A stretch of 64,000 nucleotides of DNA from IMG/VR virus record IMGVR_UViG_3300030116_004952, positions 12,530 to 76,529 of that record; one strand, 5' to 3'. Of this stretch, positions 23,185 through 63,994 are shown in pieces. A program made the position numbers and the translations under genes. How positions within the stretch are numbered: the first letter of the stretch is position 1; each line of letters starts with the position of its first letter. Source of the DNA: a virus. The notes beneath the pieces were generated by a model. It ran no database searches. It was given only the letters and a program-made list of their open reading frames with translations, and had not been told where the DNA came from.

Positions 23185-23539
23185 CCTGCTTCAATACGGA
23201 CTTAATTACCTCTAAATCTGCCTCTTGGTCTAACACCTTTAGAGCGAGATTAAATACTTCCATAAGTCTTTGATTTTCTCTTTGTAGAGTTTGGTCAGAC
23301 TTTACTCTTACCTTTAGATACTTCATCATCTTTTTACCTAAATCGGGCTTAACCGCATCAGGAGTATGTTCTAATCTAAGAATCAAAAGACGGTCATGGA
23401 GGCTATTCAATCTTTCTTTGATGTGCTTCAATTTATGATATTCTTCTTTAATAAACGAACCGACTTGTTTTTCATTCATCGCTGAAATTTTAAAACATCT
23501 GCCGTTGCTATCACTAATATATTTGTTACTGTATGTCAT
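23168..23539 (-). CDS. Hypothetical coiled-coil protein
   Basis: Co-oriented; ATGA overlap with the ligase gene. Confidence 0.55.
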   Translation of the reverse strand: MTYSNKYISDSNGRCFKISAMNEKQVGSFIKEEYHKLKHIKERLNSLHDRLLILRLEHTPDAVKPDLGKKMMKYLKVRVKSDQTLQRENQRLMEVFNLALKVLDQEADLEVIKSVLKQGVQND

Positions 23540-25056
23540 GCTAATTCCTCCATTCTTTTCATTGTGTCTATGTCGCTTACAAACTTATCCTCTCTAATTC
23601 TTTGGCATCGAGGGAATCTGAGAGATAGATTACCCTTTGCATCTTTGCTGACTAAATCAGCCCTAATTTCCAAAACTACTCTAGGTAGGAATTTATAAGT
23701 TCCATCCTTAAATGATTCAACATTCTTTCTTAGAGTATTTGTTAATGTAATTAATTGAATATCTGTGAAACCACTTCCACACCATCCAACAGAAGTAAAA
23801 CCATTATCTGATTTTACTGCAATTTCAAATGTAGCAAATACATTTGAGTTCTTTCCATCACCATACTTTGCTGAAATAATAACTACATCTAAATCAATTA
23901 GAGGTGGTTTATACTTAGCCCAGTATTTTGACCTTTTACCAGATTCATAAGGTGCATCTGCATCCTTTACAATAATACCTTCAAAGCCTTCGTTGATTGC
24001 TTTATTGTAAAAAGCCATAACATCAGTTGTTGAACGCTCGGCTTGGTCTGGTAATTTATTCATTTCAATCAATCGTTGAGAATAAGGCAAATTCATTATT
24101 GTTACGCCATTATACATCAGACAATCGAAGATGACCCATTTTACAGGACACTTCGAGATTGCATCTGCTTTGTCCTTAGAATGCACTCTTGTTCCTAATT
24201 TGGAGTGTGGTGCGGGTGAACCTCCCTCAAGTATAGGATAGATTTCTCCATCCAAAATAAGTTCATCAACCTCATAGTTTCTAACTACTTCTGCTACATC
24301 GGTAAATTGTTCTGTAACAATATTACCTTTCCTATTGAATATAATTACGCTATCTTTATCCTTATGGATTTGATAACGATTGCCGTCATACTTAAAATCT
24401 ACAATTTTATTACTAGGCCATTGTTTCATAGGTAAAGGTTTAGCCAACATTGGTTTAATAAAACTACCATGAGTTAAATTCATTGGCGGTTCTTCATTCA
24501 TCTCATAATATGAAATAACATCACTAAGAGTATTGAAGTTACAATGTTTCTTTACTTCTGATATTTTCTTTCCATAATGTTTTGCTAATACCTTTTGTAG
24601 AGTTGCAGTTTTAATACCATTACGGCTAGTTCTTAGCCAGTATCGGATAAACCACTTTACTTCAATATCAGACATATTGTATATGTGTTCTTGAATTAGG
24701 TCAAACGAATTAGATACAATATTAGAACAATCAAGTTCTAAAAGGGTCTTGAAGGTTTTGATTGTATAAGTATTTTCTTTGTTAGAAGAATCTACCCAAT
24801 ACATCGCTTCTCCTAAATCTCCATAGGTATCATATTCTGTTTGAATTTCAGATTCAAATACGTCATATACCTTTGCCATCCATTTCTTAGCCTTAGCCAA
24901 ACCAATATTGTTTGATGCTAAGTCTTGAGAAAGAATACTAAACAATGTTTGCTTATCTTCAAAATTCTCCATTTCCCTTGAAAGAAATGTTACCGCTTGA
25001 GTTGGAGTCATAAACTCGCTCGCTTCCAGTAGTCTCGCTAATTGTTTCATTGTCAT
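23536..25056 (-). CDS. lig: ATP-dependent DNA ligase
   Basis: PMLA, KYDGNR adenylation motif, LDGEI, EGIIVK, WAKYK, SLRFPR. Confidence 0.95.
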   Translation of the reverse strand: MTMKQLARLLEASEFMTPTQAVTFLSREMENFEDKQTLFSILSQDLASNNIGLAKAKKWMAKVYDVFESEIQTEYDTYGDLGEAMYWVDSSNKENTYTIKTFKTLLELDCSNIVSNSFDLIQEHIYNMSDIEVKWFIRYWLRTSRNGIKTATLQKVLAKHYGKKISEVKKHCNFNTLSDVISYYEMNEEPPMNLTHGSFIKPMLAKPLPMKQWPSNKIVDFKYDGNRYQIHKDKDSVIIFNRKGNIVTEQFTDVAEVVRNYEVDELILDGEIYPILEGGSPAPHSKLGTRVHSKDKADAISKCPVKWVIFDCLMYNGVTIMNLPYSQRLIEMNKLPDQAERSTTDVMAFYNKAINEGFEGIIVKDADAPYESGKRSKYWAKYKPPLIDLDVVIISAKYGDGKNSNVFATFEIAVKSDNGFTSVGWCGSGFTDIQLITLTNTLRKNVESFKDGTYKFLPRVVLEIRADLVSKDAKGNLSLRFPRCQRIREDKFVSDIDTMKRMEELA

Positions 25057-49456: not shown

Positions 49457-49630
49457 ATGTGGAAAGACGAAATTAAGAAAAGAATTAAAGAAGGTGCTTT
49501 TGAAAATTTAACAAAAAGACACCTTAATGTTATTAATGCTATTATTAAATTATACAAGCAAGAAGGGCCAATTGATAAAGAACAATTAAAGCAAATTCTA
49601 AAAGATGATGATATGGTTCATTTACTTTGA
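49457..49630 (+). CDS. W-tag small protein (MWKDEIKK)
   Basis: Manual 57-aa ORF with GGTGA RBS, below the track cut-off. Confidence 0.6.
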   Translation: MWKDEIKKRIKEGAFENLTKRHLNVINAIIKLYKQEGPIDKEQLKQILKDDDMVHLL

Positions 49631-49639
49631 GGTGATGTT

Positions 49640-49924
49640 ATGTGGAAAGATGAAATTAAAAAACAGTCAGATAAAAAAATATCAAACGCATTTAGACCAT
49701 TACAAAAAGCAATCTTGCACTTAGAAGTATTAGGATATGATGAAATGCAAAATGCTATTGATGAACATTTTCCAATGAAATCATTAAATGTTGATGCAAG
49801 AGAGGTAATGGAAATTCTCAAAACGTATGTGAGCGCATTAATAAACCTTCAATATGTTAGTTCTAAAGAGTCTAAAACACGAAGCCCCATTGAAAGTAGA
49901 GATACTATGTTTTCGGATGATTGA
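49640..49924 (+). CDS. W-tag small protein (MWKDEIKK)
   Basis: GGTGA RBS; shared N-terminal tag. Confidence 0.65.
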   Translation: MWKDEIKKQSDKKISNAFRPLQKAILHLEVLGYDEMQNAIDEHFPMKSLNVDAREVMEILKTYVSALINLQYVSSKESKTRSPIESRDTMFSDD

Positions 49925-49928
49925 TATT

Positions 49929-50330
49929 ATGTGGAAAGATATAATTAAAAGCAATAGCAAAGAAGAAATTTTAGAGGGTCTTTCTATTCTACAACAGAAC
50001 ATTAAACCAGATATGATTGAACCGAGAGGCGGCCATACAATGATTCTTTCGGGAATTGTAAAGAGAGAACGTGTCTTAACCTTAGATAAGAACTTTGATA
50101 ATTTCTATTTTGGTAATATGCGTTTTATTTTTCAAATACCTTCAGAAGATACTTATTTAAATCGTTCAGAAATACAAGATAGAGTAGTTTCTTTTATTAA
50201 AGGACTTGATGCTAGTGATTTGAGAATTGATAGATATACAACTGAAAAATGGACTAGCACTAGTAAGGATAGAATAGTATTTAAAAAAGGCAGAAGTATG
50301 CTTACTATCGGAATGGAAAAAATTGAGTGA
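49929..50330 (+). CDS. W-tag protein (MWKDIIKS)
   Basis: Internal Met with the tag preferred to track start 49854. Confidence 0.6.
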   Translation: MWKDIIKSNSKEEILEGLSILQQNIKPDMIEPRGGHTMILSGIVKRERVLTLDKNFDNFYFGNMRFIFQIPSEDTYLNRSEIQDRVVSFIKGLDASDLRIDRYTTEKWTSTSKDRIVFKKGRSMLTIGMEKIE

Positions 50331-50335
50331 TTATT

Positions 50336-50845
50336 ATGAATTGGTTTGATTTACTTAAAGTTGATTTCTCCCCTTCTGATGCTATGGGCTTTATGGAGCA
50401 TTTACAAGATGAATTGGGTGGAGATATTGATATTGTAAAAAGGCCACCTATTACTACTGCTGGTGAAAAGAGATTGAAATCTCCAATTAGACAAGAAATA
50501 CACCTTAACTATGATGCTGGAAATGTTAAGTTAAAGCAGAATAAAAAGGGCGAATTTTTCATTTTTACTCACAATGGTTCATTTAATGAAGAAAAGAAAC
50601 TAGGAAGGCCAGTCTATAATTTAAAGAAAATTGTGGATGAATTACTTGAGTTTTTACAAGATAATGAAACCTTTGAAAAGTTTGATATTGATGGTCTTGA
50701 TTTTTCAAAGGCTACTCCAGAAGAACAACTTTCATGGTTTAATTCGTTAAAAGCGGGAGGTGCAGTAACTACTGCTACACCTTCAATTTATAACGTAAGA
50801 TATTCAAAGAAAAAGGAGGATGAAGAGTTTGGTCAAAAAGACTAA
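50336..50845 (+). CDS. W-tag protein (MNWFDLLK)
   Basis: Tag at start; second tag-like SWFNSLKA near the C-terminus. Confidence 0.6.
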   Translation: MNWFDLLKVDFSPSDAMGFMEHLQDELGGDIDIVKRPPITTAGEKRLKSPIRQEIHLNYDAGNVKLKQNKKGEFFIFTHNGSFNEEKKLGRPVYNLKKIVDELLEFLQDNETFEKFDIDGLDFSKATPEEQLSWFNSLKAGGAVTTATPSIYNVRYSKKKEDEEFGQKD

Positions 50846-51887
50846 GAAGAATGTTGTTTCTATGAATGGAACTACTGTCGAGTTTTCTCCTTATGAGTTC
50901 ATTAAGAAATATAATGACTGGAAAACAGATATGGCTGGTGTTTCTGCTGGTTCAATTTATTCCACTAAGGATTTACTTGAAACTGTTAGAGGCCATGTAA
51001 ATACTGCTACAAGAAGAGGAAGGTCAAAAAATTCTGGAAGCGAAGGAGCATTTAAAGTTCTTGATGAATTAGATGATTTAATTAGCGAAAAACAACAATT
51101 GTTTTTTGCAGATGCTTTAACTTATTTAAGAAAGTTTGAGGAATTACTTGAGTCTTTTCTTAAAAGTCCTACATTAAATCCCCAGAATGTTAAATTTACT
51201 AAGCCTAAAGGTTGGAAAACAAACAAAAAGGGAACTAGAATTATTATTACTGATGAAACTCCAGTAGACTATTATGGACATTTTGTTGATAGTGGGGATG
51301 AAAAAACATCTTATTTCCGAGCAAGAAATAAAATCAATGAAAAGAGTAAAAATAAATCAAGCATTAGTTTAAGTGAATGGGATGATAGTTGGTCAAGCGA
51401 TAAAAAGAATACAGCAAAACCTCCACTTTACATGGCACTTTATGAAGGATATAGTAAGTCTGATGGCTTATTGGAAATTATCAAAGAAGCAATAGAAGAA
51501 CTCGAAGGTAAAGACTACATTGTTAGGATTACAAGATTACGTCAAGCAAATAAAATAGCACAGATTCCTGAAATTAGAAGAGTTATTTCTGGTCTTTTGA
51601 AAAGAAGAGCATTGTTTGATGGTGGGAATTTTAAGACAAATAATGCAAGAACTGAACTTAAGAGTAAGGTTATTGAGTTAAGTGAAGATTCTGCTAAGAA
51701 ACTTAGCGTTATTCTTTATGGGGAAGTTCTTGCAGGTGATTTGAGCAAAGTTCAATTAGACTTGACAAAACCTGCTATGAAGAGATTAATTGAATTAGCG
51801 GTGGTTACAAGAACTTCTGAATTAAAAGATAGGAAATCACCGAGCGGAGAACCTATTGTTCTTAAATCATGGAAGATGATATTATGA
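50820..51887 (+). CDS. Hypothetical protein with C-terminal LKSWKMIL
   Basis: 355-aa ORF in the packaging block. Confidence 0.6.
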   Translation: MKSLVKKTKKNVVSMNGTTVEFSPYEFIKKYNDWKTDMAGVSAGSIYSTKDLLETVRGHVNTATRRGRSKNSGSEGAFKVLDELDDLISEKQQLFFADALTYLRKFEELLESFLKSPTLNPQNVKFTKPKGWKTNKKGTRIIITDETPVDYYGHFVDSGDEKTSYFRARNKINEKSKNKSSISLSEWDDSWSSDKKNTAKPPLYMALYEGYSKSDGLLEIIKEAIEELEGKDYIVRITRLRQANKIAQIPEIRRVISGLLKRRALFDGGNFKTNNARTELKSKVIELSEDSAKKLSVILYGEVLAGDLSKVQLDLTKPAMKRLIELAVVTRTSELKDRKSPSGEPIVLKSWKMIL

Positions 51888-52651
51888 GTTGGAAAGATAT
51901 TTTAAAGGGCGAAGAGATGCATCCTAGTGTTAGGAGATATTCTGAAAAAGGTAAAAAGGATATTGAAGAATTAACAACCAGAATAAAGGGATTAGAACAG
52001 ACTCTTACTAGAAACGGTAAGTATCGTATAGATGGAGATTATAAATTTGCAAAGTTAATTGCTAGAGGGAAGTATGGTTTTTGGGATGGTAAAGAAGTTA
52101 AACAGACAGAAGAAGATAAAAAACTTATGCTAGAAAGAGATAAATTACAACGAAGATTGAAAAATTTAAAGGACAAAGGAGAAAGTTATTCTGGAGAAGT
52201 GCCATACAAATACGGAGTAGGAACTACAAGAAGAAAACGACCTACTCCAACATCAATAAGGGAAATTGAACAGTATTTGCGACACACATCAAGACGACCT
52301 AAAGATTATAGAAAAGGTAAGTCTATGTTTGGTTATGGCGAGGATGAAGTAGGTAGTGATGAAGAAGATACTCAAGATGCACTAAGATTAATAGATGGTA
52401 AGAATGCATTCATTACTGCTGCTAAACGTGCTAAAAAAGATACTAGTCGAGACACTTATTATGACACAAATGCAAGAACCTTTGCATTTAGGTTGGGGGA
52501 AGTCTTAGATTGGAAGAAAATTGGGGAATACTATAAAGGTTTTCGTGATGACCACTTTCCATCATATTTATGGTATAGCAACAATAAAGAAGAAGCCATT
52601 AAAATAGCACAAGATATTATTGATGGAAAAGATGTCAAATTAAATCAGTAG
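51884..52651 (+). CDS. W-tag protein (MSWKDILK)
   Basis: ATGA overlap with the upstream stop. Confidence 0.65.
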   Translation: MSWKDILKGEEMHPSVRRYSEKGKKDIEELTTRIKGLEQTLTRNGKYRIDGDYKFAKLIARGKYGFWDGKEVKQTEEDKKLMLERDKLQRRLKNLKDKGESYSGEVPYKYGVGTTRRKRPTPTSIREIEQYLRHTSRRPKDYRKGKSMFGYGEDEVGSDEEDTQDALRLIDGKNAFITAAKRAKKDTSRDTYYDTNARTFAFRLGEVLDWKKIGEYYKGFRDDHFPSYLWYSNNKEEAIKIAQDIIDGKDVKLNQ

Positions 52652-53317
52652 GTGAATAAAATGGTTACTCGTAAGCGTTGTGGATTTTGCCAGCATGAGG
52701 ATAGAGAGGAACTTGAATCTCTATTAGAGACAGGACAAACCAGTTGCGACGTTTTAGACGCAAACAACGGTTGGAGAAGCGGAACTGCTTCACAACATCA
52801 AAGAAACCACATGGGTAATTATGAGATGAGTTCAAATCCTCGATGTGTTCTATGCACAGACCCTATGAGGAAACACTATGAAATAGCCCTATCTGAAGGC
52901 AATATCACAAGTGATGCAGTTTCCGAAGCATTAGGCACAACAAAACAACAGGTGCAACGGCACATGAAGCACCACTTAACGCCATTGGTGCAGAAATCTG
53001 CGGCCTCCTTGATAGCGAAAAAGGAAGTAAATGAAGTTGATTTACTTTCAGCGAATGTTCAACGCTTAGATATGAAATTAGATGAAGTATTCGCTATGGA
53101 TGATTTAGACCCAAAAGTGATTGATAGTTTGACAAAACTCGCAAGAGAGATTAGGGAGTCATTAAAGTATCTTATGGAGTTTAAAGGTAAATTGGTTCAT
53201 AAGAGACAAGATACAGTTATTTTCGCACAGATGCAAATTGTTCAAGAAGTGCTTGCTCAGAACAATCCTGAAGTTTGGCTTGAGATTAAGAAAGAAATGC
53301 AGGAGAGATTACAATGA
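52652..53317 (+). CDS. Duplicated C2H2/HTH-type DNA-binding protein, candidate terminase small subunit
   Basis: CGFCQH...HQRNHM and CVLCTD...HMKHHL repeats, then helical oligomerisation-like region; upstream of terL. Confidence 0.5.
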   Translation: MNKMVTRKRCGFCQHEDREELESLLETGQTSCDVLDANNGWRSGTASQHQRNHMGNYEMSSNPRCVLCTDPMRKHYEIALSEGNITSDAVSEALGTTKQQVQRHMKHHLTPLVQKSAASLIAKKEVNEVDLLSANVQRLDMKLDEVFAMDDLDPKVIDSLTKLAREIRESLKYLMEFKGKLVHKRQDTVIFAQMQIVQEVLAQNNPEVWLEIKKEMQERLQ

Positions 53318-53562
53318 ATTGGAAAATTATATTAAAAAACGAATATTATTTAGATTTTGAAGATTATGCATTAGATAAAAATTACAATGTTATAGAAGCA
53401 GATGATGAATATTCTACCTTTAAGTTATCAGAAAAAGATAAAAGAGAACTTAAAAAAATAGAAGAAAAACTAAGCGATAAACCTAAGATAGAAATTGAAA
53501 ATGCTTTAAGAAACAGAATAATAGAAATGGCTAATGAATATTTAAAATATAGAGATGGTTAA
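53314..53562 (+). CDS. W-tag small protein (MNWKIILK)
   Basis: Starts within repeat copy 1. Confidence 0.6.
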   Translation: MNWKIILKNEYYLDFEDYALDKNYNVIEADDEYSTFKLSEKDKRELKKIEEKLSDKPKIEIENALRNRIIEMANEYLKYRDG

Positions 53563-53581
53563 ATATGCAGGAGAGATTACA

Positions 53582-53941
53582 ATGAGTTGGGAAGAAATAT
53601 TAAAGAAAGAGTTATACACTTTTGATGAAATAAATCAGGAATGGGTTAATAGCAATACTCTTATGATTTTACAAGGTAGGCCAATGAAATATGTTACACT
53701 TTTTTATAGGGGCTTATCAACAAATTATAAAAAACCAACAATGATTGCAAGTTATGTTCAACGTAGTGGTAATACTCATTTAAGTATAGACGTTTATTTA
53801 AGTGATACAAATGACTTTCCGATAAATTCTGATTCTATTACATTTAATGAATTTAGTTTCGATTATGACGTAAAAGTTACTGAACAGGAAGTTACTGAAG
53901 ATGGGCTAAAAACAAGAAAAAAGGAATTTAAATTTAATTGA
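53582..53941 (+). CDS. W-tag protein (MSWEEILK)
   Basis: Starts within repeat copy 2. Confidence 0.6.
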   Translation: MSWEEILKKELYTFDEINQEWVNSNTLMILQGRPMKYVTLFYRGLSTNYKKPTMIASYVQRSGNTHLSIDVYLSDTNDFPINSDSITFNEFSFDYDVKVTEQEVTEDGLKTRKKEFKFN

Positions 53942-53957
53942 TGCAGGAGAGATTACA

Positions 53958-54185
53958 ATGAGTTGGAAAGAAGAAATTAAGAAAGAAGATGGTTTTTTAA
54001 TGAGAGTCTACGAGATGAACGTCAAGAAAGGAACAGGTAAAATTTCTGGACTTTATAAAACTAAAGAAACATTAAAAGAACAAATTCTAAAACATACGGA
54101 AAAGGGAGATGAATCAATGTCATTAGATGAACTTGTAAGGTTAAACTCGAATGTAGATTATCGAATGAGATTTGTTTATGAATAG
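53958..54185 (+). CDS. W-tag small protein (MSWKEEIKK)
   Basis: Starts within repeat copy 3. Confidence 0.6.
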   Translation: MSWKEEIKKEDGFLMRVYEMNVKKGTGKISGLYKTKETLKEQILKHTEKGDESMSLDELVRLNSNVDYRMRFVYE

Positions 54186-54194
54186 GTGATTAAA

Positions 54195-54389
54195 ATGAAT
54201 TGGGAAGATATAATTAAACTTAGTAATAAGGAAGTAGCCTTGACTATTGACCAATTAATTGAAGATGCTACTCAATTAAAACTCGCTGTTAATGCGGGAA
54301 TAGATAGGGTGTATCAAGAAAGATTTAAAGAATTAAAAATGGCTTTTGAAGATGTTTCTGATGATATGAAGAAATTAATGCAGGATTGA
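54195..54389 (+). CDS. W-tag small protein (MNWEDIIK)
   Basis: GGTGA RBS. Confidence 0.6.
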   Translation: MNWEDIIKLSNKEVALTIDQLIEDATQLKLAVNAGIDRVYQERFKELKMAFEDVSDDMKKLMQD

Positions 54390-54394
54390 TTGTA

Positions 54395-54688
54395 ATGAGT
54401 TGGGAAGATATATTGAAAGAATTTACACCCGATGAGGAAAGAAATGAATATTATAGAATAATGGACTTATTAGATTATATTATTGAAAACTATCCAGACA
54501 AGGCAAATAATGCTAGAAGCGTAAAGAAAGACGTAGAAAGAATAGTAGATGAATTTTATGAAACGAGAGACACAATGAAAGAAAAACTTTCGAAATTAGC
54601 ACAGTATATTACTAGAGGTAAAAGTAATACATTAAGAGATACCTATAATGAATATGTTGAGGATTTAATGGAAAGGCTATTTTACTGA
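54395..54688 (+). CDS. W-tag small protein (MSWEDILK)
   Basis: Degenerate repeat upstream. Confidence 0.6.
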   Translation: MSWEDILKEFTPDEERNEYYRIMDLLDYIIENYPDKANNARSVKKDVERIVDEFYETRDTMKEKLSKLAQYITRGKSNTLRDTYNEYVEDLMERLFY

Positions 54689-54707
54689 ATAAGAAGGAGA
54701 AATTACA

Positions 54708-54815
54708 ATGACACGCTGTAAATTACTCGACCAGTGGTTTGATGCAAAGTCTAAGGAATTAGATAAAGAAGAAGAAAAACAAAATAAAGATTTAATTACT
54801 GGTGAAAAGAAATGA
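54708..54815 (+). CDS. 35-aa peptide MTRCKLLDQWFDAK...
   Basis: AGGAG RBS; ATGA-coupled to the next gene. Confidence 0.45.
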   Translation: MTRCKLLDQWFDAKSKELDKEEEKQNKDLITGEKK

Positions 54816-56587
54816 ACTGGCAATTTATCTTAAAGGCTAAGCCATCGGCCAATACTATATTAGTCGAGATTATTACTGCCTTTGATGAATTGTATAATAA
54901 AATTAAAGTGGCCGATAAAAAAAGTAAGGCGACTGGTTCAAGTATTTTTAAAAACCTGTTTAAGGAAAATCCTGATTTAGATACTAATTTTGAAACTGTT
55001 AAAAAAGTATATGAAGAAAAGATGTTAAGTCAGATGTTATCTCCTGAATTGATAAATGAAGATGAACTTCTCAAAAGATTCTCTATGATTAAAGAATTAG
55101 TTACCCAAAAAACAAAACGAACCGACTATAACGAAGAATTTTTTCAAGAACTCTTCTCTTCTAAGAAAAATCCAACAAATATTAAAGAATTGTTGGTAAT
55201 TTATCAGAAAAAGATTGCTGATAGTGTTCCAGAAAGAACGAGACAACGATATACCGAAACAAATCAAGAAAATACTGCAAGAATACAGTCATTATACAAG
55301 AAAAATCAAGAAAAACCGACAGTTGAACAGTTTAGAAAGAACGAAGTGCCTAATTTTGACTACGTTTTGGTGAAAGTGATAGTCGAGGGCAAAGAAAAAC
55401 CCAAAAAAACGGGTTGGACAACCGATGGAAACGCTTTATTTAAGGTCTTTGAGGAAGATTCGGACAAAATTGAGTCGGAAGTAGCAAAAATTGACAAAGT
55501 TAAGGAAACAAAAGTCATTTTTTCACCAATTCGCAAGAATTTTGGCGAAAAAACCTCTCTCGAAATAGAAACTACTGCAAAAAACTACAATGCAGTAGAG
55601 ATAAATCAAGAAAATCTTGCAAATTACCTAGATACCTTCAGAAATATGCAATCAATGACAGATATTAAACCCCTTGACAAAGAAGTTTTTACTGCTAGTG
55701 CTGGAAAAGTAAAAAGTAAGGCATTATTTGGTGGACAAAAACTAACTAGCGTTCCAAAATTGATTGAAAATATTCTTTTGCTAGATAGTGTTTCTTTATT
55801 GAGTAGATATATACATCCACAATTAAAAAGTAGGCGGCAATATGGACAATTTTTCTTACATGGTAAAAATATCCCAGAAAAAGAACAAGATGCTATTCTT
55901 ACAGAATTTGTTAGACAATATACCATTCTTGAAAAAGAAGTTAAGGAAGGTAGAAGAGAATCTACTCAGTTATTAATAACAGATTATGAAACAGGTGATG
56001 ATGAGGAAATAAGTGAGAATATTGTTGTTAGTGAAGGCAATAGAACATTATATAATGAATTTAGTCGTGAATATAAAAACCTTCTACGAAATATTCAAAA
56101 TAATGAAGTAGATGAAGCATTCAATAGAGCAATAGAAGATTCTGAAACAGTATTTACTACGGCATTAGACACTATTATAGGTAAGGATGAAGAAGATGAA
56201 TACGAAGGAGTAAGTAATCCTAGTAGCATAACTAAAGAAGTAATGAAATTATCTAAATCTACTGAAGAATCTCTAAATATTCTTTTAAAAATTATACCAA
56301 TGTTAAGACAAGGTGTAGACGGCAATAGAGACTTTTATGATAAATTCGATGATTTCTATGATGAATTAGAAGAAGATTTTGAGAGCGTTGATGATAAAAA
56401 ATATGACGCAGACTTCAAGAAAATATTCTATGAGGCTCATCAAGTATTCAAGGATGCTTTTATTAAATCAGCCAATGAAATAATGCAAGGTATTGCCAAA
56501 AAAGAAGATGAAAAGTATTTTTCACTTGCAAATAACAGTAAATTTATAAGCAAGTTAGTAGAAAACAAATTGTTGGAGGAAGCCTAA
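54812..56587 (+). CDS. Large helical W-tag protein (MNWQFILKA), candidate internal virion protein
   Basis: 591 aa, E/K-rich, tag at start. Confidence 0.6.
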   Translation: MNWQFILKAKPSANTILVEIITAFDELYNKIKVADKKSKATGSSIFKNLFKENPDLDTNFETVKKVYEEKMLSQMLSPELINEDELLKRFSMIKELVTQKTKRTDYNEEFFQELFSSKKNPTNIKELLVIYQKKIADSVPERTRQRYTETNQENTARIQSLYKKNQEKPTVEQFRKNEVPNFDYVLVKVIVEGKEKPKKTGWTTDGNALFKVFEEDSDKIESEVAKIDKVKETKVIFSPIRKNFGEKTSLEIETTAKNYNAVEINQENLANYLDTFRNMQSMTDIKPLDKEVFTASAGKVKSKALFGGQKLTSVPKLIENILLLDSVSLLSRYIHPQLKSRRQYGQFFLHGKNIPEKEQDAILTEFVRQYTILEKEVKEGRRESTQLLITDYETGDDEEISENIVVSEGNRTLYNEFSREYKNLLRNIQNNEVDEAFNRAIEDSETVFTTALDTIIGKDEEDEYEGVSNPSSITKEVMKLSKSTEESLNILLKIIPMLRQGVDGNRDFYDKFDDFYDELEEDFESVDDKKYDADFKKIFYEAHQVFKDAFIKSANEIMQGIAKKEDEKYFSLANNSKFISKLVENKLLEEA

Positions 56588-58977
56588 TGTCAGCACAAGA
56601 ACAAATAGAGATAATTGGAAATCTCGATAACATTGATGAATTGACTGAAAAGTATCAAAATTCAACTAATAAGAACAGGTTTGTTTTAAGAACATTTAAA
56701 CCGTATATTTCTGACGCAGGTGATTCTAGGGCAAAGGACAAGTTAATTGAAATGATTCATAGTCTTTTGAAAGAAGGTAGAAGCGAAACTCAAGCAGTAT
56801 TAGAAGATGAAAAGGGAGGGATTATTGACTTAATTAATTTAAATGGAGTCAATTATGATGGAGAACCAATGACTACTGGAACAAAATTAAAAGACCAGTT
56901 TGCTAGTCTCTTATCTAATACTGTAATAGATTTAGATAAGGTTACTACTGATAATCCTAAATCAATTTTTGATAAAAATAAAGAAGTTCGGAACATGATT
57001 ACTGCACAACTTAAAACTGGTTTTTTGAAAAGAAATATATTAGTTAAGAATATTGAAAAGATGTTTGCAGAATTTGAAGAAAGAGGCGAGTTCCAATTAG
57101 ATAAAAAGGTTCTTGAATTAGATTTCTCTTTTGCAGATTACTTCAACGCTTCCAGTTTAAAACAACTATCTAAGAGAAGCAACGTGTATAAATACTGGAC
57201 AAAGATTCATAAGCAAATAGAAGAATTAAAGACATTATTAAAAGATGCTGACATTGAAGGATTAGATGATTCTACAATAAGTAAAATTAATTACATTAAA
57301 CTATATGAACCCGTAACATTAGATGTGGATGCTTTAGATTATAGAGCGTATGATTTCGTTAAGAAATATTTATCTTTCTTTTTGGGGTCGGGTGCTGTTG
57401 ATTTAGATGAAATTGATGGAGAGTTTTACTTTGCACAAAAACAAACAAAAACCGCAGAAGGAAAGGATAAGCAACAAGGTTCAGAAATAGATTCTACTAA
57501 AGTTATTGCTTCTGAATTTAAGAAAATTATGGGTTCTAAGAAAGAAGTAGATATTTTGGGTTATGTTCATGCAGTTTCAAACTTATCGGAAGGTTCTCTT
57601 GCTTTATCTGCTGATGACAAAAAACTCTTGAAGAGTAGAATTAAAGAACTACTTAAAACCTATACTGTTAATATGGATGGGGAGTTTATTGATGCTATGA
57701 ATAGTGGCATTCAAGGTTTTATGAAAGAAATTCAAGTTCTAGGGTCTACTAAAGAAAATAATTATTTACCTATTTACTTTTCAGAAGGAATAGATAAGTC
57801 CGTAAATTATTATGTAGCACAACTAGGGGAATTTAGAGAAACAAAGCCATCTTTAAAAATGGCTGACCTTTCAAAAGTTCTTCAACGATACCAAAGTCTT
57901 ATTAAAGACAAAGACATTACAGATTCAATCAATAAAATGCTTCAAGCAGTAAAGAATGAAGTCGTTGAAGAATCTGGTGTAAAACCAACGGCAATTAGAG
58001 AAGAAGGAAAGGGTGCTGGAAAAGGCAGAAAAGACGATAAAGAACCTACATTTTATACTGCTTCCATTAGAGGAACTGAAACAAAATTCAAAGAATTAAA
58101 TGAAAAAATGAAGAAGGTTTTAAATCTAATTGATGCAACATTCATTAGACCACTAAACAATCGCTTCTCTAAGGGATTAAGTATGGGATATGACCAAGTT
58201 ATTTTAACTGATTTAATAAACAGAAAAGATTCTCCTTTCGTTATTGCTAGACAACTCGCAGAAAATAGCGCAAAGGAAGGACTTGATTTTATTAGTATCA
58301 ATGCTTTAAACGATATTAAAAACTACATGGTTGAAATTAAAAAAGCAAAACAAGTAGGTAGAAAGGTAGATTTAAACTCTCTTAAAAGAGAATCATTAGA
58401 TATGGTTACTGAAATAGAAAATATCTTAGATACTTCAGAAGATAGAAGCATGGGCTTTAGGGATTTAATTCTTGAAGATATTGCTTCTTTATACTATGCT
58501 ATTACTAAAGAAAAGACTGATTTTGAAGGAGTAGATACTGAAAAAGCATACAGAAAGTCAAGGGTTGGCGACTATGAAGATGCTCAAGCGTTTAAACAGA
58601 TTATTAACTTTTTAATACAAAACAAAGAAAATTACAAGGCTTCTATGATGAATGAAGAACTTAAGGTAATTAGACAAATTGAAGATATACAGAATTGGTT
58701 TGGAAAATTAACTAAGTCTGACCAATCTATGTTATTACAGGCACATGACCATATTAGAGTTCTTAAGAATGAAGATATTCACTTTGATGTATTAGACTAC
58801 AATGATATTGATGACATGGAATATTTCATTACTAAGATGAACAAAGAAAGAAACATTGATTTGAGTTCTATGGAAGTGTATAACATTGTCAAGGAATTAG
58901 ATTCTTTCCAAAATATTTCTAATGAGTATGGTATCAGCACAGAAGATGTTTATTTAATCAAGGCTAACTTTAGATAA
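56587..58977 (+). CDS. Large helical protein, candidate virion protein
   Basis: 796 aa; small C-terminal HTH-like domain after LTKS. Confidence 0.6.
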   Translation: MSAQEQIEIIGNLDNIDELTEKYQNSTNKNRFVLRTFKPYISDAGDSRAKDKLIEMIHSLLKEGRSETQAVLEDEKGGIIDLINLNGVNYDGEPMTTGTKLKDQFASLLSNTVIDLDKVTTDNPKSIFDKNKEVRNMITAQLKTGFLKRNILVKNIEKMFAEFEERGEFQLDKKVLELDFSFADYFNASSLKQLSKRSNVYKYWTKIHKQIEELKTLLKDADIEGLDDSTISKINYIKLYEPVTLDVDALDYRAYDFVKKYLSFFLGSGAVDLDEIDGEFYFAQKQTKTAEGKDKQQGSEIDSTKVIASEFKKIMGSKKEVDILGYVHAVSNLSEGSLALSADDKKLLKSRIKELLKTYTVNMDGEFIDAMNSGIQGFMKEIQVLGSTKENNYLPIYFSEGIDKSVNYYVAQLGEFRETKPSLKMADLSKVLQRYQSLIKDKDITDSINKMLQAVKNEVVEESGVKPTAIREEGKGAGKGRKDDKEPTFYTASIRGTETKFKELNEKMKKVLNLIDATFIRPLNNRFSKGLSMGYDQVILTDLINRKDSPFVIARQLAENSAKEGLDFISINALNDIKNYMVEIKKAKQVGRKVDLNSLKRESLDMVTEIENILDTSEDRSMGFRDLILEDIASLYYAITKEKTDFEGVDTEKAYRKSRVGDYEDAQAFKQIINFLIQNKENYKASMMNEELKVIRQIEDIQNWFGKLTKSDQSMLLQAHDHIRVLKNEDIHFDVLDYNDIDDMEYFITKMNKERNIDLSSMEVYNIVKELDSFQNISNEYGISTEDVYLIKANFR

Positions 58978-58995
58978 ATATAAGGTTGTGATTAT

Positions 58996-59646
58996 ATGGC
59001 AATATTTATACCCAATACCCTATATTCAGAATCTGATTTATTTAAAGTTTGGAATGGATATTGGAGTAAAACCAACAAAACAGGTTTTCCTTATGAGTAT
59101 GTTCTTAGAAAAAATAATGAAAGAATTTTAACCCCATTGTCTACAATAAATCCATTATTTTGGATTGCATTTGATAACGAGAAACCCGTAGGATATTGTG
59201 GATTAGAAGATAATGGTTCTTTCTTTGCTACTGCTGGAGTAGTTGTTATTCCAGAATATCAAGGTAAGAAAATTTCTAGTGAGTTAATGAAAAAAAGACT
59301 TGCAAAGGTTGGGTCAAAGCCGATTTTAGCGGGAATCAATAACAAAAATTTACCTGCTGGAACTTGGAAAAATTCTTGGAAAAGAAGAGGCTACCGAGAT
59401 ATTGATTTAAATAATTTACCAAAAGGAATCCCATATAATGTGGCAAAAGAACAAGTGGATGCTAAGGGTCAAGAAAATGTTTTAGTCTATTCAAAAGATA
59501 ATATTTTAAAAGCCAAAGATGCGGCAGTAAATAAGCCAATGCCACAAATTACTAGAAGAAAGAAAAAAATTAGAAGTGGCGATAAAGGTAGAACTATTCA
59601 AGGTAAAAACTTCCCCGAATGGAAAAAAATTCTTAGGGGTGATTAA
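58996..59646 (+). CDS. GNAT-family acetyltransferase
   Basis: VGYCGL, GVVVIPEYQGKKISSELM (motif A), WKRRGY. Confidence 0.7.
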   Translation: MAIFIPNTLYSESDLFKVWNGYWSKTNKTGFPYEYVLRKNNERILTPLSTINPLFWIAFDNEKPVGYCGLEDNGSFFATAGVVVIPEYQGKKISSELMKKRLAKVGSKPILAGINNKNLPAGTWKNSWKRRGYRDIDLNNLPKGIPYNVAKEQVDAKGQENVLVYSKDNILKAKDAAVNKPMPQITRRKKKIRSGDKGRTIQGKNFPEWKKILRGD

Positions 59647-60081
59647 ATGAGTTGGAAGGATATTATTAAAAGTGCTAGTAATATCAGAAGAAACTGGATT
59701 AATTCAAAAACTCCACCAGACTTATATTACTATGATAAATTACCGAGAAAACTTAAAAAAGAATTCGATGAATTATTTGAAAAGATGATTGACGATATAC
59801 AAAGAAAATATCTTCAAGGAGTAGAAGAAATGTTTAGAACTGTATTTGAAACAGAAAACATGAGAGGTATGTATAGTTTAAAGGATGGTGGCATTCGAGA
59901 GTTTAATTTTCAAATTGCTCCAAAATCTTCTAGCGTAGATAAATATGGTAGATTTTCTAATTATTATTTATACTTTGACAAAATGGTAAAAGATACTGAA
60001 TTAGGTCAAACTCAATCAGCATATATAACTTCAGAAGAATGGGATAATTTAATGGAAACTATACTTAATGTAAAAGGGTGA
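59647..60081 (+). CDS. W-tag protein (MSWKDIIK)
   Basis: GGTGA RBS; tag at start. Confidence 0.6.
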   Translation: MSWKDIIKSASNIRRNWINSKTPPDLYYYDKLPRKLKKEFDELFEKMIDDIQRKYLQGVEEMFRTVFETENMRGMYSLKDGGIREFNFQIAPKSSSVDKYGRFSNYYLYFDKMVKDTELGQTQSAYITSEEWDNLMETILNVKG

Positions 60082-60085
60082 TTAA

Positions 60086-61510
60086 ATGGAAGAGTTTAAT
60101 TTAGAACATCAAATGGATATGGAGTTATCAAAAAACTCCTTTCCATATTTTTTCCAGCACGTTCTAGGTTTTGATTTTCCAACATACATACAAGAATGGC
60201 ACGATTTAATGAATGATACACAAAGAACTGTTATTATTTGTTCAAGAGACCACGGAAAATCAGTATTTATGCACAGTTGGGTTGTTTGGAATTTAATATT
60301 TCAACCTCCACCTTATCAGATGCTTTATATTTCATCTAACCAAAAGCAGACAATGGTTCACATGAGAGACATTGATAAGATGTTTCAACATCCACTTCTT
60401 AAAAAGTTTAAACCTGCAAGAGGTTGGGCTATTGGAAACATTACATTAACAAATGGTAATCAAATCCTTGAACGTTCTGTTGGTTCACAGATTCGTGGAT
60501 TACACCCTCAAGAAATTATTATTGACGACCCTTTGAAAGAGTTCAGCGTAAGCGGTATTCAAAAGGTAACAGATTGGTTTTATGGGGATATGATTCCTAC
60601 ACTTCACCATACTGCATCTTTAAGAGTTATCGGAACTCCATTTAGTTATACAGATATTTACAAACAATTAGAAGAAAATGCCGCATATACTGTCAGAACT
60701 TATCCTTGTCTTAATGCACTTAATGAACCTCTTTGGCCTGAGCGTTGGGATTATGATGCATTAATGTCAAGAAAGGCTGAAATTGGTTCACTTAAATTTA
60801 CAAGAGAATATATGTGTGTTCCTATTTCAACAGGAACATCTTTATTCAATCCAGAATATTTACAACTTGCTAAGAATAAAGACTTAGTTTTAAAACCAAG
60901 TAGAAGAGAAGGATATAAGTATTTTGTTGGAGTAGACCCTGCTATATCTACTGATGGCGACTATAACGTAATTACTGTTCTTGAAGTAGATAATGAAGAT
61001 AATAAGAACATCGTTTATATTGACCGTTCCAAAAACGTAGAGTTTAGAGAGAACATTAACAAGGTCAAACTAATTGGAAAGATATTTAATCCAGAAGTAA
61101 TCCTATTTGAAACAAATACATTCGCAAAGTCATTTACTCAAGAACTTCGCAACGTCGCAGATTTAAATGTTCATGACTTTAATACTACTCGCAAGAAAAA
61201 AGAAGAAGTTATTTTAAACCTCCAAATGACTTTAGAAAATCAAAAGATGAACTTTCCTTATGGTAATGAAGAAAGTCGAAGAGTTACATCAGCATTGGTT
61301 GAAGAACTATCAATGTTCGCAATTACAGAACGTGGAAGATTTGAAGGAATTGGGGCGCATGATGACATGGTGATGAGTTTGGCCTTAGCAAATGCCGCCA
61401 CGTTTCAAATCACGGATAACTTCATACTCTTGGATGACATGGAGATATTCGGGAGTTCAAATCGTTCTAACAATCGAGTAAAAATGCCATTTCTGGGGTT
61501 GAATTTTTAA
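60086..61510 (+). CDS. terL: Terminase large subunit
   Basis: SRDHGKS (Walker A), IIIDDP (Walker B), IGTP, nuclease GVDPA and HDDMVMSLA. Confidence 0.92.
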   Translation: MEEFNLEHQMDMELSKNSFPYFFQHVLGFDFPTYIQEWHDLMNDTQRTVIICSRDHGKSVFMHSWVVWNLIFQPPPYQMLYISSNQKQTMVHMRDIDKMFQHPLLKKFKPARGWAIGNITLTNGNQILERSVGSQIRGLHPQEIIIDDPLKEFSVSGIQKVTDWFYGDMIPTLHHTASLRVIGTPFSYTDIYKQLEENAAYTVRTYPCLNALNEPLWPERWDYDALMSRKAEIGSLKFTREYMCVPISTGTSLFNPEYLQLAKNKDLVLKPSRREGYKYFVGVDPAISTDGDYNVITVLEVDNEDNKNIVYIDRSKNVEFRENINKVKLIGKIFNPEVILFETNTFAKSFTQELRNVADLNVHDFNTTRKKKEEVILNLQMTLENQKMNFPYGNEESRRVTSALVEELSMFAITERGRFEGIGAHDDMVMSLALANAATFQITDNFILLDDMEIFGSSNRSNNRVKMPFLGLNF

Positions 61511-61800
61511 TGTGGTGGAATATCATTAAAGCGGTAAATCCTGATACGGGTGAACCTTTAAAATTTTTATGGAAAGGCCCAAAAGCAGCATTAACTGGAA
61601 CACCTCAATTTGTTCAGAATTATATTAGAGAGTTTGGATATATACCTTTACAAATATATAAAAAAAGTTTTACTGGAGATTATGAGCCTTTTGTTAGTTT
61701 TACAAGTAAAAGTAGAGATGAATATTTAGAACAAATGAGAAAGGTTATGGAAGGCGTGGATAAAAGAACGCAATTTAAGATATACACGTTTGACAATTAG
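61510..61800 (+). CDS. W-tag protein (MWWNIIKA)
   Basis: Overlaps the terL stop; tag at start. Confidence 0.55.
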   Translation: MWWNIIKAVNPDTGEPLKFLWKGPKAALTGTPQFVQNYIREFGYIPLQIYKKSFTGDYEPFVSFTSKSRDEYLEQMRKVMEGVDKRTQFKIYTFDN

Positions 61801-61808
61801 GTGATACT

Positions 61809-63179
61809 ATGGATTTAAGTGAATTAACTCCTGAAGAGATTGATGAGGTTGCTGATAATGCAACTGAACAGGCTCGCCTCAAAAGATTATCACAACAGGC
61901 TAAAGATGAAATGCAAACTTTAACCAATAAATCATTTTTAGTTGGTGGTCGAGTCCTTTCGGAATTAGAAGAAATTCATAAAATTTCAACGCATATGAAT
62001 ATCAATGCAACCGAAGCAAGAAAACAATTAACATTCCCTCAAGAATACAACATTGATGGTCAAACTATTCCCGACCTTGTTAGAAAGATGCGTAAAGCAA
62101 GGAGACAATTGAAGGGAGACATTAGAGATAAAATGAACAAAAGTATTGATTCTCTTATTGATGGGTATTCTGATTATCTAAATAAGTGTATTGAATCAAT
62201 GCATTGGTTAAGTCCTTACTCTATCCCACTTAAGAAAATGTCTATTACAGAAAAAGACTTATTTAAACTTAACAAGATGAAAGATACTACATCAAGAAGA
62301 GAAGTAGTAGATGTTTTGTGTAAGTATTGGGAACTCGATTTAGACCAAAAAGATATGGCTTTTTGTAGAGATTATGCTAAAATTTCAAAGGAGATGAAAG
62401 AAGTCAAGAAAGAATACAGGGGCATTCTTTCTAAGATTAACTCACAACAGTTGAAGAAATCTAAGAAAGAACAGGCTAAAGAGTTTATTCTTAAACAAAT
62501 TGTCAATAATCCTGGAATTGGTGCAAAAAGAATACATGAAAATATGCCCAGTCCATTATACAAATACAGCAATACTAATATGATTTCTAAAATGGTTAGA
62601 AGTATGAATGTTGCTAATTATGAAGGTGCTTATTACAAAGTCCCATCAATGATGAAGAAAAATATTTGGGCTTATACTGCCGCATTTATTGATTCAGATG
62701 GCTATATTACATTAGACCGTAACATGAATCCTAGAGTTGGATTAGTCGCAACAGGAGAAAGAGGGAAGGCTTTTATGCAAGAAATGCATAAATCTATTGG
62801 ATTTGGCAGAATGCACCTTGACCAAAAATCACCACAAGATACTCGACTAATTAACAGATTAAATTTCTATTCACAAGATGATGTTACTGACCTTTTAACA
62901 AAGTGCTTGCCTCATTTTAGACTAAAGAAAGGTAATGCTAAGTTATTACTTGAACTTATTCGCATGAAAAAGTCTTATAAGAAAGCCGATTGGTATAAAG
63001 ACCGTTGCGATGAAATCTTTAAATTAATGAAGTGGGAAAACCATAAAGACCACGTTGGCTTTGATTGGGCTAAAGAGAATATTTATTTAGATGATATTGC
63101 AAAGTTACAAGGTAATTGTAAAATGAGTCTTATGGATGAATTAGAGAATGTCGGTGGAATTGTTCTTAAGGAGGTTTGA
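61809..63179 (+). CDS. Helical N-terminus + HTH-like region + C-terminal LAGLIDADG endonuclease-like domain
   Basis: WAYTAAFIDSDGYI, IGFGRM, LPHFRLKK. Confidence 0.7.
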   Translation: MDLSELTPEEIDEVADNATEQARLKRLSQQAKDEMQTLTNKSFLVGGRVLSELEEIHKISTHMNINATEARKQLTFPQEYNIDGQTIPDLVRKMRKARRQLKGDIRDKMNKSIDSLIDGYSDYLNKCIESMHWLSPYSIPLKKMSITEKDLFKLNKMKDTTSRREVVDVLCKYWELDLDQKDMAFCRDYAKISKEMKEVKKEYRGILSKINSQQLKKSKKEQAKEFILKQIVNNPGIGAKRIHENMPSPLYKYSNTNMISKMVRSMNVANYEGAYYKVPSMMKKNIWAYTAAFIDSDGYITLDRNMNPRVGLVATGERGKAFMQEMHKSIGFGRMHLDQKSPQDTRLINRLNFYSQDDVTDLLTKCLPHFRLKKGNAKLLLELIRMKKSYKKADWYKDRCDEIFKLMKWENHKDHVGFDWAKENIYLDDIAKLQGNCKMSLMDELENVGGIVLKEV

Positions 63180-63181
63180 TT

Positions 63182-63994
63182 ATGAGTTGGCAAGATGTAT
63201 TAAAAAGAAAAGGAAAGCAAAAGAGACAAAGAAAAGCATTGGCTGAAGCAAATGCTCAATTAAATACGCTTGATGATTTTTATGCAGCAAGGGAAAATGC
63301 AAGACAGGCTCTATATAACACTACAAAGGGGCAAAGACAGAAACTTCTTAGATTGATTGAAGATGACCTCAAGAAAAAGCGTGATGGTAAAATAATAACA
63401 GATGAGCGTTTAATAAACGAAAAGACTAATCCTTCTACTACATTTACAGAAGAAGAAAACTTTGGCCATAGATTAAAATTTGGTCAACATAGAGGATTAC
63501 GACTACCAGATAATTTAATAAAACTATTGGCTAAAACTATTTATTTTAGAGACTTTGCTTCTTTCTTTATGAATCGTGCATATACTAGCAAAAAGACAAA
63601 CGTATATGGGAATCGAAAATATAGTTACCTTGACCGTAAAGTAATGTTACGTGACATATATCAAAAACAATTTTGGCCAGCGTTCAATGAATGGATGAAA
63701 AGTCTTACTGATGAACAGAAACAAAAAATGTCTGAATGGAATAAAAAATCTGCTGAAGAAGAAAGAAAAAGATATGAGGCCGAAGCACCCGAAAGAGAAA
63801 AGAAAGCCCGCTATGAGGCTAAAAAGGAAGCAAAGCGAGCAAAAAGAGAAGCCCAACAAGCAAAAAGAGAAGAAAGAAAAAAATTAAGAGAGGGCTTAAA
63901 AGGAAGAAAACCTCAAGGTGCAGGTGGTAAATCTAAATCAGAAAGAAGTCGAGAGCATGGCCGACACAGTTCTCGACAATTTAAAAAATTATAG
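63182..63994 (+). CDS. Basic W-tag protein (MSWQDVLK)
   Basis: K/R-rich coiled-coil C-terminus; tag at start. Confidence 0.6.
   Translation: MSWQDVLKRKGKQKRQRKALAEANAQLNTLDDFYAARENARQALYNTTKGQRQKLLRLIEDDLKKKRDGKIITDERLINEKTNPSTTFTEEENFGHRLKFGQHRGLRLPDNLIKLLAKTIYFRDFASFFMNRAYTSKKTNVYGNRKYSYLDRKVMLRDIYQKQFWPAFNEWMKSLTDEQKQKMSEWNKKSAEEERKRYEAEAPEREKKARYEAKKEAKRAKREAQQAKREERKKLREGLKGRKPQGAGGKSKSERSREHGRHSSRQFKKL

Follow-up and report, generated by a model that had tools for sequence, protein, structure and literature searches.

A short peptide tag on unrelated proteins of a magrovirus resembles the tail of the prohead protease-scaffold and may serve capsid loading

Background

In phage T4 the capsid-targeting sequence (CTS) is the sole conserved part of otherwise diverse internal proteins, which include anti-restriction proteins that are injected together with the DNA (PMC3012670; PMC7411985). 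Short conserved terminal targeting peptides also load cargo into the HK97-fold shell of encapsulins during self-assembly (PMC11664910); these shells are cellular compartments with, usually, one dedicated cargo (PMC8229669). In phage 80alpha the scaffold binds the capsid protein via a C-terminal RIIK hook that it has in common with the satellite protein CpmB (PMC5644958). Here we describe an eight-residue N-terminal tag, M-(S/N)-W-x-x-(I/L/V)-(I/L)-K, that heads 14 predicted proteins in a window of the IMG/VR record IMGVR_UViG_3300030116_004952, a single virus contig of 76,529 bp (referred to as G000). The window that we analysed is a stretch of 64,000 nucleotides (bases 12530-76529 of this contig), and positions given below are those of the window unless stated otherwise.

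The contig, a fragment of 76.5 kb, comes from a magrovirus, and magroviruses are head-tailed viruses that infect Marine Group II archaea. In surface oceans these viruses are abundant, and most of their genes have no assigned function (PMC5434244). We found no published description of the tag, and the magrovirus papers that we searched do not mention it. We report the tag, selection acting on it at the peptide level, its confinement to the strand of the head genes, its modularity, its occurrence on approximately 200 unrelated protein families and the register that it shares with the tail of the protease-scaffold. On balance, we consider it probable, if only by a modest degree, that the tag is a docking peptide that copies this tail, loads variable cargo into the procapsid and is perhaps trimmed after its Lys by the HK97-type protease.

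Results

A sequence-only reading of the window had listed 14 tagged starts between positions 49457 and 63994, and each of these is an ATG-initiated plus-strand open reading frame (ORF) with the N-terminus as given there; the ORFs encode 57 to 591 amino acids. No further tagged ORF of at least 40 residues is present on either strand of the 64-kb window, where the sole extra match to the search pattern is a 15-residue minus-strand ORF at 18345. The strict form of the tag, M-x-W-x-x-phi-phi-K (ATGNNNTGGNNNNNNNTNNTNAAR), occurs nine times in the window compared to 0.22 expected, and none of 100 shuffles gave nine or more. A 15th tagged ORF (MWYEILKK, 108 residues) is located outside the window at genome positions 452-778. 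With the first 10 residues removed, each of the 15 tagged proteins belongs to a BLAST family of its own and thus the bodies are unrelated after the Lys, as had been claimed. The tagged genes share the strand of the terminase, portal and capsid genes and are densely packed; the gaps between them are at most 19 nucleotides with one exception of 123 nucleotides.

The census of relatives was based on 80 IMG/VR loci with a terminase identity of at least 82%, in which ORFs of at least 40 residues were counted. The terminase strand carries 518 tagged ORFs and the opposite strand none, while the 533 tagged proteins group into approximately 198 BLAST families (123 singletons). Without any motif filter, Trp is found at residue 3 in 34% of the terminase-strand genes within 10 kb of the terminase. 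Among the pattern matches in five complete relatives of 90-97 kb, 64 of 66 are on the terminase strand, mostly in clusters near the terminase and the head genes; the control, a reversed pattern, gave no match in these five genomes. The minus strand of the present genome has no tagged ORF of at least 40 residues, which together with the five relatives bears out the earlier statement that the replication block lacks the tag. The enrichment that had been predicted for the portal, scaffold and capsid protein was not recovered, the N-termini of these proteins being untagged (the scaffold has the motif C-terminally). Tags are also strand-specific in clades where the protease-scaffold is 48-53% identical, with 144 counted on the strand of the protease and 0 on the opposite one. 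In a clade at 43% identity the M-x-W tag is absent from all 864 genes; its proteins bear a leader with another spacing, F-[DE]-x-A-W-x-phi-L-K, which is N-terminal and in a few cases C-terminal.

The tagged gene set turns over very fast. For ten of the 15 tagged genes there is no homolog in the relative G001, the terminase of which is 97.9% identical, and the backbone genes for the terminase, a zinc-finger-like protein and an endonuclease are 96-99% identical between the two. Rapid turnover where only the tag is kept is the pattern known for the internal proteins of the T-even phages (PMC3012670), and it is as expected for counter-defence or host-takeover proteins. Pfam gave no match for 146 of 149 tagged family representatives; scans of the 149 yielded three matches to Pfam and 12 to PHROGs. 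One tagged family of approximately 190 residues has the soluble class A acid-phosphatase fold (Pfam PAP2, 1.2e-12; model pLDDT 86.7; Foldseek matches to PhoN-type enzymes). This PAP2/PhoN-like family is encoded at L016:383-955 and in 15 other loci (alignment A2) with the KxxxxxxRP, PSGH and SRxxxxxHxxxD motifs intact, and in its model the tag is a short helix (residues 3-8, low confidence) separate from the core. The model of a Cys-rich tagged family (A3) has a pLDDT of 39.7.

The sequence-only reading had set conservation of the nucleotides against conservation of the amino acids, and both codon usage and within-family synonymous divergence favour the peptide. The Ile, Leu and Lys codons of the tag are used at background frequencies, with all six Leu codons included. 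Within 22 families the amino-acid identity is 0.73 for the tag versus 0.53 for the body; for identical residues of these families, the synonymous differences amount to 0.38 and 0.36, respectively. Since codon usage is that of the background, synonymous change resembles that of the bodies and amino-acid identity is higher, purifying selection acts on the tag peptide and not on the DNA; codon usage and synonymous divergence rule out nucleotide-level conservation of the core tag positions. When the 149 family representatives are aligned independently of the search pattern, conservation of the Lys at tag position 8 exceeds 90%.

Bias at the DNA level is restricted to codon 2 and some upstream junctions. 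Codon 2 is nearly always A-first, Ser at this position is encoded by AGT in 89% compared to 29% in the background, and in the 80 loci the residue 2 codons are almost only A-N-T or A-N-A (AGT Ser, AAT Asn, ACT/ACA Thr). This codon-2 bias is a nucleotide preference at +4, separate from the selection on the peptide. Codons 4-5 are extra A/T-rich at the third position. The 17-nucleotide junction atgcaggagagattaca is present in three exact copies (53297-53313, 53565-53581 and 53941-53957) before the tagged genes that start at 53314, 53582 and 53958; it covers the end of the upstream gene (...ERLQ and stop) together with the ribosome-binding site, and the repeats probably mark cassette insertion or duplication by recombination. 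Taken with the rapid turnover of gene content, the repeated junction and the biases at codons 2 and 4-5 speak for a DNA-level junction cassette (stop, ribosome-binding site and start) that serves recombination shuffling or an optimal translation start and in which the peptide is functionless. We regard this explanation as largely refuted and very improbable, since the Ile, Leu and Lys codons are at background, the amino acids are more conserved than those of the bodies at equal synonymous divergence, and the peptide recurs at C-termini and internal junctions where no start codon or ribosome-binding site is in register. The DNA-level signals fit a translation-start preference and cassette insertion by recombination, which leave the peptide unexplained.

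Away from N-termini, W-x-x-phi-phi-[KR] occurs 113 times versus 13 expected. Internal copies at module junctions account for 53 of the occurrences, and the body downstream of such a copy is a stand-alone N-tagged gene elsewhere. The conserved C-terminal copies, with endings such as ILRGD, VLKWN and LLKKR directly before the stop, include those of a 352-residue protein (50829-51887) and of the GNAT acetyltransferase beside the terminase; all 22 homologs of the former end K-[SM]-W-x-x-phi-L-[RWK]-x(0-2). Three tag-like segments had been noted near C-termini, two of which, SWKMIL and EWKKILRGD, are indeed terminal; the third, SWFNSLK, is internal and located 30 residues from the end of a 169-residue protein. 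The latter is a fusion of two tagged modules, because its internal SWFNSLK and tail constitute a 45-residue stand-alone tagged gene in L025:771-905. Moreover, at L001:14609-15082 and in homologs in other loci an N-terminal module of approximately 39 residues (MPIRKVKGGYKWGSKGKVY..., phrog_31267) is fused before an internal tag (...GYVKK-SWKDILKK...), and the bodies behind this internal tag are also found as stand-alone tagged genes. The tag is thus modular, being N-terminal, C-terminal or at junctions, and not strictly N-terminal; it is tied to protein ends and not to start codons. A peptide that can stand 2 residues after the N-terminus, 1-3 residues before the C-terminus or where two modules meet is a short linear docking or processing motif.

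The GNAT acetyltransferase is conserved beside the terminase and raises the question of covalent modification, where the enzyme would acetylate the N-terminus or Lys8, or a putative ThiF/JAMM ubiquitin-like system would conjugate Lys8 (SUMO-like phi-K-x-[DE]). The conservation of Lys8 fits this, as does a D or E at K+2 in 35% of the families; the SUMO-like variant was rejected because an acidic K+2 in just 35% is a weak preference. The acetyltransferase itself carries the motif at its C-terminus and therefore fits cargo better than a modifying enzyme, nothing links the enzymes to the tag, and the tail of the scaffold would be left unexplained. Among the explanations considered we judge modification to be the least probable.

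The capsid gene of G001 is immediately preceded by an ORF (L082:16098-17378, minus strand) of 426 residues that has an N-terminal Peptidase_S78 domain (PF04586, HK97 family), followed by an acidic half that, read by eye, appears to be a coiled-coil scaffold. This protease-scaffold ends W-[SA]-D-[IV]-H-[KR] in 72 of 80 capsid loci, and M-[DE] precedes these residues in nearly all. The scaffold tail, M-[DE]-W-S-D-I-H-K, and the tag, M-S-W-K-D-I-L-K, are in the same register and agree at M, W, D, I and K. When the 44,790 six-frame positions of G001 are ranked by a position matrix derived from the tags, the tail comes 31st. A C-terminal M-[SD]-W-x-[DE]-[IV]-[HNE] is also frequent among those of 150 representatives (31-58% identity) that cover the scaffold half. 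Since scaffold and protease tails anchor inside HK97-type shells, the tag would most simply be a copy of the capsid-docking peptide of the scaffold. Across clades, tag and tail show no clean co-variation: intermediate clades have the same tag and tails such as KMDWNDINALV. In the distant clade (L168-L241) a protein of approximately 110 residues encoded just after the portal gene (e.g. L184:2593-2913) has M-[ST]-W-x-[ED]-I-H-[ED]-M-A, as in the scaffold tail of that clade.

The tag might instead dock to another hub, such as the terminase, the portal, the virus chaperonin or a host factor (e.g. a proteasome-activating ATPase), and steer the folding, stability, timing or localisation of late accessory proteins that are not packaged. 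Selection on the peptide and a location at the ends of proteins are compatible with short linear docking motifs of any kind, and the genome encodes a Cpn60/TCP-1 chaperonin. In addition, the protein encoded just upstream of the terminase has a C-terminal copy in many relatives, which recalls the tails of small terminases; such tails bind the large terminase. A hub of this kind would leave unexplained why the tail of the protease-scaffold has the same register and why the tag is confined to the head strand, the replication genes on the strand of the chaperonin being untagged, and we consider it possible but unlikely.

With respect to processing, the tag ends phi-L-K and the N-arm of the capsid protein keeps x-L-L-K at approximately residue 28-34 in two clades with protease-scaffolds that are about 43% identical, while the flanks differ between the two (GNALLK-QAG and GSELLK-ADA). 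The HK97 protease gp4, which is the family prototype, removes the N-terminal propeptide of the capsid protein. In the HK97 gp5 sequence Lys103 is directly before SLGS (TFNK and then SLGS), and we take the cut point to be after this Lys with mature gp5 starting at Ser104. Trimming of the tag after Lys8 by the HK97-family (S78) protease is therefore plausible, given the ends of the tag, the capsid N-arm and Lys103 of HK97. The phi-L-K strings at the N-terminus of the protease and at the end of its protease domain were considered as self-cleavage sites and rejected, as they are widely conserved in distant S78 proteases.

The tagged block in the window, where the tagged genes, the two C-tagged ones and the terminase are on the plus strand, starts with two ORFs headed by MWKDEIKK: one of 57 residues (49457-49630), this being the variant without residue 2, and one of 94 residues (49640-49924) with a G001 homolog that is 47% identical. 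These are followed by ORFs of 133 residues (MWKDIIKS, 49929-50330) and 169 residues (MNWFDLLK, 50336-50845), the latter being the fusion referred to above with its second, internal tag at 50732-50752. The 352-residue protein, untagged at its N-terminus, ends with the motif LKSWKMIL (51867-51884), and the next tagged ORF has 255 residues (MSWKDILK, 51884-52651). A 218-residue Cys-rich protein (MVTRKRCGFC..., 52661-53317) that gave no family matches shares 99% identity with its G001 counterpart, and its place is always after the C-tagged 352-residue protein. The three genes preceded by atgcaggagagattaca encode 82 residues (MNWKIILK, 53314-53562), 119 residues (MSWEEILK, 53582-53941) and 75 residues (MSWKEEIKK, 53958-54185), and then come ORFs of 64 residues (MNWEDIIK, 54195-54389) and 97 residues (MSWEDILK, 54395-54688). 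The largest tagged ORF, with 591 residues (MNWQFILK, 54812-56587), is a conserved backbone gene whose tagged G001 homolog is 55% identical. The acetyltransferase (216 residues, 58996-59646; Pfam Acetyltransf_7/1/10) has an untagged N-terminus and EWKKILRGD at its C-terminus (59617-59643), and is followed by a tagged ORF of 144 residues (MSWKDIIK, 59647-60081). The landmark of the head and packaging block is the untagged large terminase subunit (60086-61510; phrog_38, 5.7e-57; Terminase_6C/6N), after which we find a tagged ORF of 96 residues (MWWNIIKA, 61510-61800). Directly after the terminase region there is an untagged 456-residue protein (61809-63179), 96% identical in G001, the C-terminal part of which matches the homing-endonuclease family phrog_5046. 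The final gene before the contig end encodes 270 residues (MSWQDVLK, 63182-63994).

The assignment to the magroviruses is based on gene content. A minus-strand block encodes a split family B DNA polymerase, an RFC-like clamp loader, the Cpn60/TCP-1 chaperonin, an ATP-dependent DNA ligase, a ribonucleotide reductase and a UvrD helicase, and the plus strand carries the large terminase together with tail genes. Genes for terminase, portal, protease, tail tube and tape measure are all present in this contig and its relatives taken together. An HK97-type head module is thus found along with the virus's own replication module, in agreement with the published gene content of magroviruses (PMC5434244). 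No close relative was found among the INPHARED phage records, where terminase identity is below 60%. The relative G001 (90,867 bp) has direct terminal repeats and approximately 14 kb that are absent from this contig; this segment encodes the portal (phrog_18178), a ligase-domain protein, the protease-scaffold, the major capsid protein (phrog_24667) and head completion genes. A ribosome-binding site and ATG span the contig ends; the comparison with G001 rules out that the contig is circular, and it is a fragment that lacks these 14 kb from portal to capsid gene. The tagged block therefore extends past the end of the window. The ligase-domain protein of G001 (833 residues with an ATP-dependent DNA ligase domain; L082:17417-19918, minus strand) has its gene within the head module, where the portal region and the protease flank it, and comes on top of the ligase of the replication block (23536-25056).

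Discussion

In the interpretation that we favour, capsid loading, the tag M-[S/N/T]-W-[K/E/Q]-[D/N/E]-I-[L/I]-K would be a short amphipathic docking helix with W3, I6 and L7 on one face, and it would imitate the C-terminal tail of the virus's own prohead protease-scaffold. During HK97-type assembly this tail would hold the protein against the inner face of the capsid shell, and late proteins from the head operon that have the tag at an exposed end could become trapped inside the assembling procapsid. Following DNA packaging the cargo might then be delivered to the next host together with the genome, and the phi-L-K end is a candidate trimming site for the HK97-family (S78) protease. The sequence-only reading had suggested a portable address label for the head, like that of T4. 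Selection on the peptide, confinement to the head strand, function at either end and the match to the scaffold tail agree with such a label; the untagged N-termini of portal, scaffold and capsid protein do not, and the label is not strictly N-terminal.

Several observations weigh against capsid loading. The viruses are uncultured, and we infer binding to the capsid protein, packaging, cleavage after the Lys and ejection with delivery to the host from the genomes. It would require 15-20 cargo species per genome, some of 600-800 residues, which is far above the load of T4. The match between tail and tag is partial, with His versus Leu at position 7; it covers five positions, with an estimated chance probability of approximately 0.002-0.007 for that location. 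Furthermore, the distant clade has the scaffold tail M-S-W-[DE]-E-V-H but the F-[DE]-x-A-W-x-phi-L-K leader and no M-x-W tags; since the spacing of this leader differs, tag and tail are not co-linear everywhere. Finally, the phi-L-K strings found within the protease are widely conserved in its family and could belong to the fold instead of marking cut sites.

The tag system works like the T4 CTS and the cargo peptides of encapsulins and is homologous to neither. The T4 CTS, found on IPI-III and Alt and removed by the gp21 prohead protease, is likewise a short (approximately 10 residues) N-terminal peptide on diverse small proteins near the head genes, and the two have the same amphipathic layout, in which two polar residues separate an aromatic residue from a hydrophobic pair. 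As in the T4-type system, the peptide is common to proteins that are otherwise unrelated, be it the 15 of this genome or the 533 of the census. There is, however, no sequence homology: the T4 protease belongs to the gp21 family and the one here to PF04586 (Peptidase_S78), and cleavage is after Glu in T4 whereas we propose that it is after Lys. T4 has approximately four to six tagged genes compared to 15-20 per magrovirus genome and about 200 families. Unlike the CTS, the magrovirus motif matches the tail of the scaffold and can also stand C-terminally or at a junction. The virus infects an archaeon, and the proposed function is deduced from sequence.

The protease gp4 of HK97 is in the same family (PF04586) as the magrovirus protease-scaffold. 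Its C-terminal tail was reportedly described by Duda, Oh and Hendrix in 2013 as an encapsidation signal that directs the protease into the prohead and can carry foreign proteins. The gp4 tail (...LQSIKSFPSNLGK) lacks the Trp motif, and the signal is not known to be used on other HK97 proteins. In the SaPI1 CpmB/80alpha system, as here, a terminal motif of the scaffold is borne by a second, unrelated protein, and there it binds the same site on the HK97-fold capsid protein (PMC5644958). The RIIK of 80alpha is a hydrophobic pair plus Lys, one residue from the end, and resembles the C-terminal copies in the magroviruses. CpmB is, however, a single competitor that changes capsid size and not a set of cargo, whereas the mimicry in magroviruses is mostly N-terminal, contains Trp and involves hundreds of families.

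With encapsulins the magrovirus system has in common short terminal peptides, here as N- and C-terminal copies, in combination with an HK97-fold shell, the capsid protein being a major head protein of phrog_24667. Encapsulins typically have no genome, portal or terminase. The magrovirus shell differs in being a true virus capsid with terminase, portal and protease, and the consensus sequence of the peptide is another one.

Conclusions

As a tentative extension, which we would place somewhat short of an even chance, the magroviruses may have an open-ended delivery system where a copy of the scaffold tail, gained at one end or the other, turns the product of any gene into capsid cargo that is injected into the next host. 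If true, a third of the late operon would consist of interchangeable effectors, and a cargo code resembling that of encapsulins would operate in a true virus on a scale that has not been described for any phage. It would provide a sequence rule for finding cargo in metagenomes, one that joins the T4 targeting sequence, scaffold-tail mimicry and encapsulin cargo peptides into one mechanism, and a loading tag of eight residues for an HK97-type shell could serve as a packaging tool. For the magroviruses it would give hundreds of protein families that now have neither a location, inside the virion, and a role, delivery at infection, and it would show where the arms race between these viruses and their uncultured archaeal host is fought.

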